Source: Synchiropus picturatus
Lineage: Eukaryota
NCBI GenBank assembly: GCA_044231675.1
Contig: CM094669.1
Coordinates: forward strand, 2,929,643-2,993,642
Length of the DNA: 64,000 nucleotides
Direction: 5' to 3'
Shown here one piece after another: positions 11,174 to 14,353 of the stretch. Made by a program: the position numbers and the translations under genes. The notes beneath the pieces are model-generated. The model made no database searches and was not told the origin of the DNA. It saw only the letters and a program-made list of their open reading frames with translations. Positions within the stretch are counted from its first letter, which is position 1, and every line of letters begins with the position of its first letter.

Positions 11174-14100
11174 ATGGATGCTCGCGTGGTCACCGCTCTG
11201 CTGCTGCTGCTGATCGAAGGTGAGACTCTCGATACTCCCAAACGCTCTGATACAAAGAACAAGATTCTGGTCGGGTTGTATGGACCACCACTAGGCTCAG
11301 ATGCTCTGCAGCCGATGGGTTAACTGCAACTGAAGACTGTCTTTCATCTTCAGGAGAACTGGTCTAAATTCTGTCCTTCTTCTGTGGTCCTACCTTTGAC
11401 TCTGACTTGATCCCCTCTGCCGCGACCCTCTCTGCTTTGGTACCCTTCACTCTGATGCCCTCAACTTTGGTACTGTTCACTGCCTGCGACACCCTCTAGT
11501 TTGATGGCCTTTTCTTTAATAACCTTGATGATGACCTTTCAAATGTCTCCTTATCTGAACCTTTTCTACTATGGGGGCCTGGGCCTCACAAGTTTAAGCC
11601 TCAATATGAGGATTAAAACTGAGTTTAAGTTGGGTTCAGGTTAGCCATTTGTTTTGCATGCTTTAGGTTTAGGGTGAGAGGCTGAGGAGCCTCATGTCAA
11701 TGAGTCGTCCCCACAAAGACAGGTAGACAAACATGTGTGTGTGTTGAACTTTCCGACTTGGTTGAACCTGTCTGGTCTGTTTGGGTGCCTGTCAGCAGCA
11801 ACTAATCATTTTTTTGATTGATGGCAGCTTCCGTGTCAAAGTGTGACATGTCATGTGACCACTCACACGCCTCTGTTTTGTCTTACAGGATGTCGCGGAC
11901 AGCGGGATGGTGAGTTTCTGTCTCATGATCGACCCAGTCCAACTTTCATTCAGAGTGTGAACAGTTTGTCTGTGTGTGTGTCTGTGTGTGTGTCTGTGTG
12001 TGTGTAGTATGCGGCAGGGCAACTTTAAACACCCGGATCGTTGGCGGGCAGGTTGCCCCTGAAGGGAGTTGGCCCTGGCAGGCCAGTCTTCACCGCAGTG
12101 ACGGTCATATCTGTGGAGGGTCACTGGTCAACAACAAGTGGGTGCTGACCGCCGCCCACTGTGTACCCAGGTACGCACGCACGCTCACACACGCACGCAC
12201 TGTTAAACCAACCCGGCGTGTCTCTGATTCTGATGAGCAGTGCCAGCACACTGAATCTGCGAGTGTATCTGGGTCGGCAAAGTCAGGAAGGGTCCAACCC
12301 AAACGAAGTCTCTCGGACAGTCACCCGAATCATCAACCACCCGGATTACAACCCAGACACCAGTGACAATGATATCAGCCTGCTGGAGCTCTCGGAAACC
12401 GTCACCTTCACCAACCACATCGTACCCATCTGTCTTGCCGCGTCAGACAGCACTGTCTTCACTGGAGAAGACACCTGGGTCACCGGCTGGGGGAGGATTG
12501 GGTCTGGAGGTCAGTTCTGACTCTTTCTCTCACACTTGACTCAGTACTGTCAGACTTGGAGACCTTCTCTGAGCCAGTCTGGACAACACTGACCAGCTGA
12601 GGTTTTGTGCCCACAGTCCCACTGCCCTCACCGCAGAACCTGATGGAAGTAGAGGTTCCGATCATTGGGAACCGCCAGTGCAACTGTGACTATGGTGTAG
12701 GAACGATCACCGACAACATGATCTGTGCTGGACTCAGGGAGGGAGGGAAGGACTCGTGTCAGGTGAAAATGCAGCTTTATGTCTTTGAGCTCCACTGAGG
12801 GTGCTTGTAACACCCGGGTCCGTTCTGCAGGGAGACTCTGGTGGACCGCTGGTGAGCAAGCAGAACGATGTGTGGAACCAGCTGGGTGTGGTCAGTTTTG
12901 GAAGAGGGTGTGCCCTACCTAAGTTCCCCGGAGTCTACGCCCGGGTGTCCCGGTACCAGTCCTGGATAGAGTCCACCATCATCACCAACCTGCCGGGTTT
13001 CGTGACCTTCGAGTCCTCCGGTTCCAACAGCGACAACAATGTTACATGTCCCGGCCTCCCGCCGCTTCCCACCACCGTCCCGCCAATGACCACGGTCAAA
13101 CGTAAGTCAACATGCTGGCCTCTGAAAAGAGGACCGGATCCTTCACAGTCTCTCTGTCTCCAGCGATCGTCTGCGGTCAAGCCCCAAAGAACTCCCGGTT
13201 CATTGGGGGAAGCTCCGCGGCAAGCGCTGGCATCTGGCCATGGATGGCGAGTCTCCAAAAGAACGGAACTCACGTGTGTGGAGGCTCGCTGGTGGCAGTG
13301 GACGCTGTTCTGAGTGAGGCCAATTGTTTCTCCAGGTAAGACTGAAAGACACACGTAAGGGAGAATGGTGCTCAGGCCGGGGCTCATCCTCTGCTGTGGT
13401 AGTTGCAGTAGTAGTCATCTTGGTCCCTCACATCGGTTTTGCTCCTCAGCCCGGCTCAGCCATCAGAGTGGACGGTGGTTCTCGGGCGTCTGAAGCAAAA
13501 CGGTTCTAACCCGTTCGAAGTGTCTATGAACGTGACCAACATCACGCTGAGCAACCAAACCGGCTCCAACGTGGCAGTGCTGCACCTCTCCTCCTCACTC
13601 ACGCTCTCCGACTACATACAGCCCATCTGCATGAGCAGCAGTCAGACCTTCTCCGTGGGCACCAGCTGCTGGGTGGCGGGCTGGAGCGTCGGACAAGGTG
13701 GAGGTGAGTCCAGACCTCTTGCTCTCTACAGGTGCTCGTTGCTCAAGCATTCCTCTCTTGGCAGAAGAAGGAGTCCTGCAGGAAAATCAGATGGCCATCG
13801 TCGACTGTGGGAACACCTCATCCTCGGCAGACGCCATCTGCACAGGCGCCCTGACCCTGCAGCAGGTCAGGACCACCCCAAAACACCTGTCAGCCACAAT
13901 GTAATTGGTCAGCATTTCGATAGCAGGTGTTAGGGTTCAACTTCCAAATCCTTCGCTGCTGCCTTGTGGTTGAGAGTACAAATCCGGGCCAGAGTTGTGT
14001 CATTGTAGTGGAAATTATTGGATCGAGTCGCTTGTGTCTGTCTGCAGGGGGACTACGGAGGACCTGTCATGTGTAAAATTGGAGACTCCTGGTACCAGGC

Positions 14101-14353
14101 AGCAGTTTTGGCGGGAAACAGCACCCAAGTCACAAGCACGAGAGCAGGCGACAAATTGGTCTTCACCAAACTCAGCTCCTACTCATCCTTTCTAACCAAC
14201 ACTCTGGGGTCGTTCTTAACACCGGCCTCCAGCTCCAACACAACCAGCAGCCCGGGAAACAGCACGGGCACTACCGCCAACAGCGGCGTGTCTGCCCGCC
14301 TTCTGCTCCCCCTGCTGGCCGTCTGCCTGCTCCTGCAGCTGCTCTGCTCCTGA
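11174..14353 (+). CDS. Secreted two-domain trypsin-like (S1 family) serine protease. The N-terminal domain is catalytically intact, the C-terminal domain is a catalytically dead protease homolog, and the protein ends in an S/T-rich stalk plus a hydrophobic GPI-anchor-like tail. CDS join: 11174-11219, 11889-11909, 12008-12170, 12241-12509, 12617-12762, 12831-13101, 13164-13335, 13450-13703, 13765-13874, 14048-14353 (1758 nt, 585 aa).
   Basis: Exon 1 is a signal peptide ([15 protein letters not shown]). Domain 1 carries the S1 hallmarks: RIVGG...WPWQASL...CGGSL...WVLTAAHC (His), DNDISLLEL (Asp), GDSGGPL (Ser) and SWIES. Domain 2 carries RFIGG...WPWMASL...CGGSL but the triad positions read [15 protein letters not shown] and GDYGGPV. 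The C-terminus is ...[44 protein letters not shown]. All splice junctions are GT-AG with consistent phases. An AATAAA sits at 14655. Confidence 0.85.
11575..11760 (+). repeat. Dispersed repeat, copy B. Copies A and B flank exon 1 of the serine protease gene.
   Basis: See copy A. The two copies are direct repeats about 680 bp apart. Confidence 0.6.
13164..14353 (+). CDS. Sub-feature of the protease gene: the second S1-fold domain with the catalytic triad replaced (His to Asn, Asp to Asn, Ser to Tyr), plus the putative GPI-attachment tail.
   Basis: Motif positions were read directly from the translated exons 13164-13335 (SEANC), 13450-13703 (SNVAVLHL) and 14048-14353 (GDYGGP). Confidence 0.7.

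Follow-up and report, generated by a model that had tools for sequence, protein, structure and literature searches.

Prostasin and testisin are glycosylphosphatidylinositol (GPI)-anchored serine proteases. Several S1 domains can also be carried in one polypeptide: polyserase-2, which is secreted and glycosylated, has three domains in tandem and activity only in the first, and polyserase-1 (TMPRSS9) combines a type II anchor and an LDL-receptor module with three domains, one of them inactive, that processing releases (PMC1435904). Here we analyzed a 64,000-nucleotide stretch of the dragonet Synchiropus picturatus (the window; assembly GCA_044231675.1, contig CM094669.1, positions 2,929,643 to 2,993,642 of the forward strand), to whose first letter the coordinates below refer. 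On its plus strand, at 11174–14353, lies a gene that joins an active S1 domain (domain 1) to a catalytically dead one (domain 2). We regard it as probable that the gene encodes a GPI-tethered, prostasin-like protease whose ancient, glycosylated pseudoprotease module has a binding or regulatory role.

The gene model was obtained by reading positions 10800–14800, translating all frames and joining the exons by hand. Ten exons, separated only by GT-AG introns, joined in frame to a coding sequence of 1749 nt that is translated into 582 amino acids. NCBI already carries an annotation of the gene: over its whole length, this translation was 100% identical to the RefSeq protein “transmembrane protease serine 9 [Synchiropus picturatus]” (P0001), and the hand-built model equals the RefSeq model. 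The ten exons counted in a first-pass annotation, which had been made from the letters of the window, were thereby confirmed in their canonical borders, their in-frame joining and their identity to RefSeq, and its conceptual translation of 585 amino acids is corrected to 582. The Pfam family Trypsin (PF00089) matched two stretches of the protein (E = 1.2e-103), and only trypsin-type families were matched. No other S1 exons were found in the 64-kb window, in which this is the sole S1 gene, and “tandem” here means two domains within one gene, not two genes.

The catalytic residues of the two domains differ. Alignment to prostasin and enteropeptidase showed that the triad of domain 1 is complete (His73, Asp121 and Ser218). 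Exon 1 (11174–11219) contains the start codon and a signal-peptide-like hydrophobic N-terminus, with a hydropathy of 3.3 in the best 10-residue window, and the 21-nt exon 2 (11889–11909) ends the signal or pro region. Exon 3 (12008–12170) encodes the pro-peptide Cys24, the activation site Arg32/Ile33-Val-Gly-Gly (12034–12039) and His73 (CAC, 12157–12159), and exon 4 (12241–12509) encodes Asp121 (12371–12373). Exon 5 (12617–12762) carries Asp212, which corresponds to position 189 and to trypsin-like S1 specificity (12751–12753). Exon 6 (12831–13101) carries Ser218 (TCT, 12837–12839), the end of domain 1 and a conserved 50-residue linker with an invariant Cys288.

In domain 2, residue alignment with enteropeptidase paired seaNc with saaHc, gsNvav with dnDiam and gdYggp with gdSggp, which corresponds to the substitution of His57 by Asn359, of Asp102 by Asn403 and of Ser195 by Tyr484. 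Domain 2 starts in exon 7 (13164–13335), with Cys309, an activation-type site Arg317/Phe318-Ile-Gly-Gly (13196–13201) and Asn359 (AAT, 13322–13324). Exon 8 (13450–13703) contains Asn403 (AAC, 13568–13570) and a conserved cluster of N-glycosylation sequons (N380, N390, N393 and N398), and exon 9 (13765–13865) contains Cys462, Cys473 and the sequon N464. Exon 10 (14048–14353) encodes GD-Tyr484-GGP (TAC, 14054–14056), a degenerate 215–226 region, a Ser/Thr/Asn stalk (14225–14299) and a 17-residue hydrophobic, GPI-signal-like tail (14300–14350) before the stop codon, 302 nt past which an AATAAA polyadenylation signal was found (14655–14660, plus strand). The motifs quoted in the first-pass annotation were all recovered, namely TAAHC (70–74), DNDISLL (119–125), GDSGGP (216–221), RFIGG (317–321), WPWMASL and CGGSL, and the triad-region motifs of domain 2 read SEANC (356–360), SNVAVLHL (402–409) and GDYGGP (482–487). 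Its reading of an active domain 1 and a dead domain 2, with all three triad residues substituted in the dragonet, was thus borne out by the enteropeptidase alignment. With Asn, Asn and Tyr at these positions, domain 2 cannot use the classical charge relay.

To place these substitutions in the family, we used a set of 55 proteins that consisted of the dragonet protein and 54 two-domain orthologs of about 570–645 amino acids from acanthomorph fishes. The orthologs came from the homology search and were 61–70% identical to the dragonet protein in alignment, and four two-domain paralogs in which both domains are active were excluded. In domain 1, His, Asp and Ser were each present in 55/55. The His57 position of domain 2 was never His (N in 37 proteins, D in eight, K in three, S, A and G in two each, E in one), and the Asp102 position was Asn in 55/55. 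At the Ser195 position of domain 2, Ser was still found in 43/55, and the remainder had Y (four), A (three), F (two), N, G or I. The corresponding codon was TCT in five species and TAC in the dragonet; two sticklebacks had TTT and ATT. Tyr at this position was shared by the dragonet and three others only, and the combination N/N/Y, which the first-pass annotation had wanted compared across teleosts, is not a conserved set. The first-pass annotation had also proposed that all three residues were lost at once, and this does not hold: the losses of His and Asp are ancient, with gar and bowfin already Q/N/S, Ser195 is widely kept, and Tyr is secondary. An intact domain 2 triad in related fishes, which had been named as a sign of recent decay, was not seen, as His57 or Asp102 occurred in 0/54 orthologs. 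The pattern at position 195 fits stepwise drift after the catalytic partners had already been lost, and the Ser-to-Tyr change in the dragonet would have come late, when the residue was already orphaned.

Both domains are similarly conserved. The mean pairwise identity among the 55 proteins was 75.3% in domain 1, 72.7% in the linker, 72.9% in domain 2 and 41.6% in the C-terminal tail. The ratio of nonsynonymous to synonymous substitution rates (dN/dS) was calculated pairwise by the Nei-Gojobori method (NG86) for eight species pairs, with codons from seven orthologous loci that were extracted by exact-match chaining, tblastn having covered only 25–55% of residues. Domain 2 gave values of 0.19–0.40 (0.19–0.22 between the dragonet and three other species), domain 1 gave 0.10–0.28 in distant pairs and 0.60–1.0 in three close pairs, and the tail gave about 0.5–1.8. 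Domain 2 is under purifying selection and has been kept since its triad was lost. The first-pass annotation had seen in it a conserved, non-catalytic domain rather than a decaying one, and this was upheld by the intact open reading frame (ORF) in the 54 orthologs, by the identities of the two domains (72.9% vs 75.3%) and by its dN/dS. The protease fold has thus remained strongly constrained long after catalysis was lost, with the orphaned Ser195 drifting to Tyr, Phe, Ala, Ile, Asn or Gly in separate species. As a separate observation, the dN/dS of domain 1 exceeded that of domain 2 (0.32–0.40) in all three close pairs (loci L002/L003, L004/L005 and L006/L007), which, though the counts are small, may point to diversifying selection in the catalytic domain.

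The age of the dead domain was addressed by an exhaustive, profile-free search with domain 2, followed by classification of the domains. Domain-2-like domains formed a coherent class in which nearly all had Asn at position 102. They were typically the last domain of their proteins, behind one or two active domains, and the dead domain was also the last domain of three-domain paralogs. Members of the class were found in the bowfin Amia (triads HDS, HDS and QNS), the gar Lepisosteus (QNS), the eel Anguilla, the milkfish Chanos, mormyrids and an anchovy. The loss of His and Asp, being common to gar, bowfin and teleosts, is older than the separation of teleosts from gar and bowfin. A 4066-residue protein of Lepisosteus oculatus (P0121) was also observed, with 14 tandem S1 domains, most triads of which are substituted (QDT, SDT, RDT, HDG, SNT and others); it represents an extreme polyprotease or else a tandem gene array that was fused into one model.

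Similarity scores and a domain tree further place the dead domain within a ray-finned-fish family. The dragonet dead domain scored 201–247 bits in BLAST against fish dead domains, 124–145 bits against the active domains of bowfin and milkfish, and 47–62 bits against domains 2 and 3 of PRSS36. The tree was built by neighbor joining with 200 bootstraps; it is distance-based and sparsely sampled, has no PRSS21, PRSS27 or PRSS33 sequences, and used opossum and platypus polyserase-2 and several tetrapod PRSS53-type proteins for comparison. Domains of ray-finned fishes, active and dead, formed one clade (90%) apart from the PRSS36 and PRSS53 clades, and the fish dead domains formed a single clade within the tree (100%). 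Domains 2 and 3 of PRSS36 formed another clade (90%), which was joined with amphibian PRSS53-like third domains (96%). The fish clade was joined, with weak support (62%), to prostasin and to coelacanth and frog “TMPRSS9-like” proteins, and the deeper nodes are tentative. The separate clades and the low bit scores indicate that the active-plus-dead design is convergent with that of polyserase-2. They also indicate that the names TMPRSS9 and polyserase-2 given by RefSeq and other sources reflect similarity and not orthology.

Gene structure shows how the two domains came together. The start phases 1, 2, 1 and 0 of exons 3–6 are repeated in exons 7–10, and this identity of phases in both halves indicates that domain 2 arose by internal tandem duplication of exons 3–6. 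The same 10- or 11-exon structure was found in the seven orthologs that were mapped onto their own genomic DNA. Exon 2 ends in phase 1, the start phase of both exon 3 and exon 7, so an isoform that skips exons 3–6 would stay in frame and is possible. The dead domain was also found by itself. Sphaeramia orbicularis has, besides its two-domain gene (P0075), a stand-alone gene for a 305-residue protein (P0296, at 30975–39075 of its locus L008), 36 kb away on the opposite strand, with its own signal peptide, a dead S1 domain 92% identical to domain 2 of P0075 and a hydrophobic tail. No domain 1 exons were found in this 49-kb locus, and a Channa gene model (P0141) looks like a second stand-alone dead-domain gene. 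These genes suggest that the dead domain needs no catalytic domain in cis to function.

Three other explanations of the dragonet gene were weighed against this evidence. The stand-alone models of Sphaeramia and Channa, and the phase match between exons 2 and 7 that permits an in-frame transcript without exons 3–6, could be taken to mean that exons 7–10 are a separate gene, or are transcribed mostly separately, and that the fusion is an annotation artefact. We consider this highly improbable: intron 6, of 62 nt, leaves no room for a promoter or a first exon, exon 7 begins without Met or signal peptide and continues in frame from the conserved linker, RefSeq and the 54 orthologs show the same two-domain architecture, and the stand-alone gene of Sphaeramia is a different, inverted locus that is only 92% identical in domain 2. 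Exons 7–10 would hence belong to the same gene as exons 1–6, as the first-pass annotation had assumed. A relic that is now decaying in the dragonet might be suspected from the substitution of all three catalytic residues and the divergent 215–226 region of domain 2, and has almost no chance of being correct; the open ORF with canonical splice sites, the non-His57 and Asn102 states that gar, bowfin and each of the 54 orthologs share, and the dN/dS of 0.19–0.22 effectively refute recent decay. An inactive domain inherited from a common ancestor with mammalian polyserase-2 (PRSS36) or TMPRSS9, of which the gene would be the fish ortholog, is what the source names of the dragonet protein and its orthologs imply, “transmembrane protease serine 9” or “polyserase-2”, and polyserase-2, glycosylated and secreted, has activity in the first of its tandem domains only. 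This is improbable too. The dragonet dead domain is much closer to the active domains of bowfin and milkfish than to domains 2 and 3 of opossum and platypus polyserase-2, the fish and PRSS36 domains fall into different clades, and the protein has two domains rather than three, neither an N-terminal type II anchor nor an LDLa module, and its hydrophobic anchor at the C-terminus. PRSS36 or TMPRSS9 orthology was rejected on these bit scores, clades and architecture. The label “polyserase-type” given in the first-pass annotation is therefore apt for the architecture and wrong for kinship, as the fish dead domain clusters with fish active domains.

Several features bear on how the protein might work. 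The activation site R-IVGG of domain 1 was invariant (55/55), and domain 1 has both the pro-peptide Cys24 and Cys141, the latter of which aligns with Cys423 of domain 2 and is taken here as chymotrypsin position 122. Domain 1 would be a trypsin-like zymogen that stays disulfide-tethered after activation. In domain 2, Arg317 was conserved in 49/55, Ile at position 318 in 44/55 (Phe in the dragonet) and Gly-Gly in 50/55. Asp483, which corresponds to Asp194, was nearly invariant, Cys309 and Cys423 were invariant and make up a tether equivalent to that of domain 1, and three further disulfide positions were kept, with Cys191–Cys220 lost. N-glycosylation sequons numbered none in domain 1 and seven in domain 2 (family means 0.36 and 6.7), and six sites were present in at least 39/55 proteins. 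Domain 2 is followed by the Ser/Thr/Asn-rich stalk and then by the hydrophobic stretch that runs to the C-terminus. The hydropathy of this tail was 2.54 in the dragonet and at least 1.5 in 52/55, and no charged residue occurred in the last 20 residues in 45/55. Its small residues, short spacer and terminal hydrophobic stretch match the layout predicted for a GPI signal.

Structure prediction agrees with the two-domain layout. AlphaFold gave two beta-barrel S1 domains and a terminal helix, with a mean predicted local distance difference test score of 76 and a predicted template-modelling score (pTM) of 0.51. Foldseek searches against the PDB returned prostasin as the top match, with target-normalised TM-scores of 0.88–0.91 to prostasin and enteropeptidase. 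Two extra invariant cysteines were also observed, Cys188 in domain 1 (NRQC188NC, 12679–12681) and Cys288 in the linker (NVTC288PGL, 13047–13049), and a disulfide between them that pins the linker onto domain 1 is plausible.

From these features a mechanism can be proposed for the probable reading of a GPI-tethered protease with a binding or regulatory module. The protein would be secreted and GPI-anchored at the cell surface, like prostasin and testisin, and cleavage after Arg32 would activate domain 1, which would stay disulfide-tethered. Domain 2 would then be a heavily N-glycosylated pseudoprotease, set between the catalytic domain and the membrane, that binds and does not cut; it may hold domain 1 in place, regulate it, or interact with a substrate, inhibitor, receptor or other partner. 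Cleavage after Arg317 may first give domain 2 an HGF-like conformational “activation”, which is conceivable because the Arg/Ile-x-Gly-Gly site, Asp194 and the Cys309–Cys423 pair are retained. A broader proposal is advanced only tentatively: the dead domain could be an autonomous pseudoprotease module, older than the split of gar and bowfin from teleosts, that arose within a prostasin-like family of ray-finned fishes independently of the inactive domains of polyserase-2. Fused behind one or two active domains or standing alone, secreted or GPI-tethered, it could take part in a protease cascade of epithelia as a glycosylated partner with a binding or regulatory role (as cofactor, decoy or receptor), and HGF-like cleavage might precede this role.

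Domain 2 might instead be mainly a passive, glycosylated spacer or stalk that lifts and shields the catalytic domain, with no specific binding or regulation. Its position between domain 1 and the membrane-proximal stalk, the crowding of sequons in domain 2 (seven vs none in domain 1, six of them conserved) and the degenerate wall of its S1 pocket would all suit such a role. However, a spacer would need neither about 73% identity over the whole fold, with invariant residues throughout, nor the retained Arg/Ile-x-Gly-Gly site and Asp194, and the true spacer-like part of the protein, the stalk, is nearly neutral (41.6% identity, dN/dS of about 0.5–1.8). The stand-alone dead-domain gene of Sphaeramia has no catalytic domain to space, which counts against a pure spacer role. 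We consider the spacer explanation unlikely, though by no means far-fetched. Several points also weigh against a binding or regulatory module. The GPI anchor, the cleavage at Arg317 and any binding partner are all predictions from the sequence, and Gly replaces Arg at the putative cleavage site of domain 2 in 5/55 proteins. The S1-pocket wall of domain 2 (215–226) is poorly conserved, is modelled with low confidence and has lost Cys191–Cys220, which makes a conserved, substrate-like pocket less likely and suits the simpler role of a spacer or glycan shield. At a pTM of 0.51, the model gives no reliable orientation of one domain relative to the other. The dN/dS values come from a simple pairwise method, with dS saturated in distant pairs and small counts in close ones.

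The surroundings of the gene were compared with those of six other percomorph loci (L002–L007). In the window, srrm2 lies head-to-head with the protease gene, about 3.5 kb away. It was recognized by its first coding exon with the Pfam domain cwf21 (7362–7700, minus strand, within an srrm2 stretch at 6822–7700) and by long, repetitive Arg/Ser-rich exons (1522–4454, minus strand), whose Arg/Ser-rich ORFs, of low complexity, gave no Pfam match. No match to srrm2 was found in the 10 kb upstream of the protease gene at the six other loci, where a gene for about 550 amino acids, of no Pfam family, lies on the same strand within 10 kb upstream. The adjacency to srrm2 that the first-pass annotation had noted is therefore real in the window and may be lineage-specific, and by itself it cannot place the gene in a 16p13.3-type cluster. 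Downstream of the protease gene lie an exon of an UNC-93 gene (mfsd11-like, 17306–17779, minus strand) and exons of eif1 (SUI1, 20447–20882, plus strand). The six loci share eif1 and a second conserved downstream region (22.3–22.8 kb of the window), and the stickleback locus L006 also shares the UNC-93 gene; the shared eif1 and UNC-93 genes differ there in order or orientation.

Further into the window, on the minus strand, are exons of forkhead-domain (33094–33969), TLC-domain (40259–40738) and C2H2 zinc-finger genes (47890–48369), the zinc-finger match being just below the Pfam cut-off. Other ORFs resemble NLK and TAO kinases, which suggests a mix of synteny like that of human 16p13.3 and of chromosome 17. 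A short interspersed repeat was found in two copies around exon 1 (10928–10970 and 11588–11630, 81% identical over 43 nt), and (GT)n microsatellites lie in introns 1 and 2 and directly before the start codon. At the end of the window, an ORF fragment of a retroelement reverse transcriptase (Pfam RVT_1, 62949–63998, minus strand) has a related copy in the Anarhichas locus (L002, 6236–6769).

Two sources give orthologs of the dragonet gene the name zgc:100868. The zebrafish gene of this name was up-regulated by cold stress (PMC3364249), was a hub gene, described as unannotated, in an irg1l/noxo1a co-expression module (PMC11140123), and appears in a co-expression network table (PMC9453431). No functional study of the fish two-domain family was found in the literature, the zgc:100868 papers listing expression only, and for a fish “polyserase” only one salmon quantitative PCR marker and reference-list mentions were found. 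In the distal intestine of salmon, a “tmprss9-like” transcript was induced in gut inflammation and was discussed through the cancer biology of human TMPRSS9 (PMC4911373). If this transcript belongs to the fish family, its name misleads. The fish two-domain family is a candidate for the study of epithelial protease biology.

Domain 2 has a predicted S1 fold, lacks a working triad and is maintained by selection, and on these grounds can be called a pseudoprotease, which invites comparison with the beta-chains of HGF and MSP, pseudoprotease ligands. With the HGF beta-chain it shares the S1 fold, a substituted triad and an identical GDYGGP motif (Ser195 to Tyr), the MSP beta-chain matched domain 2 (E = 1e-18), and the activation-cleavage motif and Asp194 are retained in domain 2. 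It differs from both in that no close relationship was found, the fish protein has no kringle domains, Tyr occurs in only 4/55 proteins and the fish S1 wall is not conserved. With prostasin (PRSS8) and testisin (PRSS21) the fish protein shares the signal peptide, the pro-peptide Cys, Arg/Ile-Val-Gly-Gly, Asp189 and a C-terminal hydrophobic signal of GPI type. Prostasin, besides being the top structural match and grouping weakly with the fish clade (62%), was among the top sequence matches, but prostasin and testisin have one catalytic domain each and lack a pseudoprotease domain.

TMPRSS9 is similar in that its polypeptide holds several S1 domains, including an inactive one, whereas its type II anchor, its LDL-receptor module and its three processed domains have no counterpart in the fish protein. 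Polyserase-2 is alike in its signal peptide, its heavy glycosylation and its single chain of tandem S1 domains, where catalytic competence is confined to the first. It differs in having three domains rather than two, in being secreted where the fish protein has a C-terminal hydrophobic tail, and in the residues lost, the opossum and platypus triads being HDS, SDS and HPS or HSS; the dead domains are not orthologous. The dragonet gene is genuine, but it follows a known protein design in a fairly ordinary way and does not overturn current understanding, and its comparison with polyserase-2 indicates that the active-plus-dead tandem protease design arose at least twice in vertebrates.

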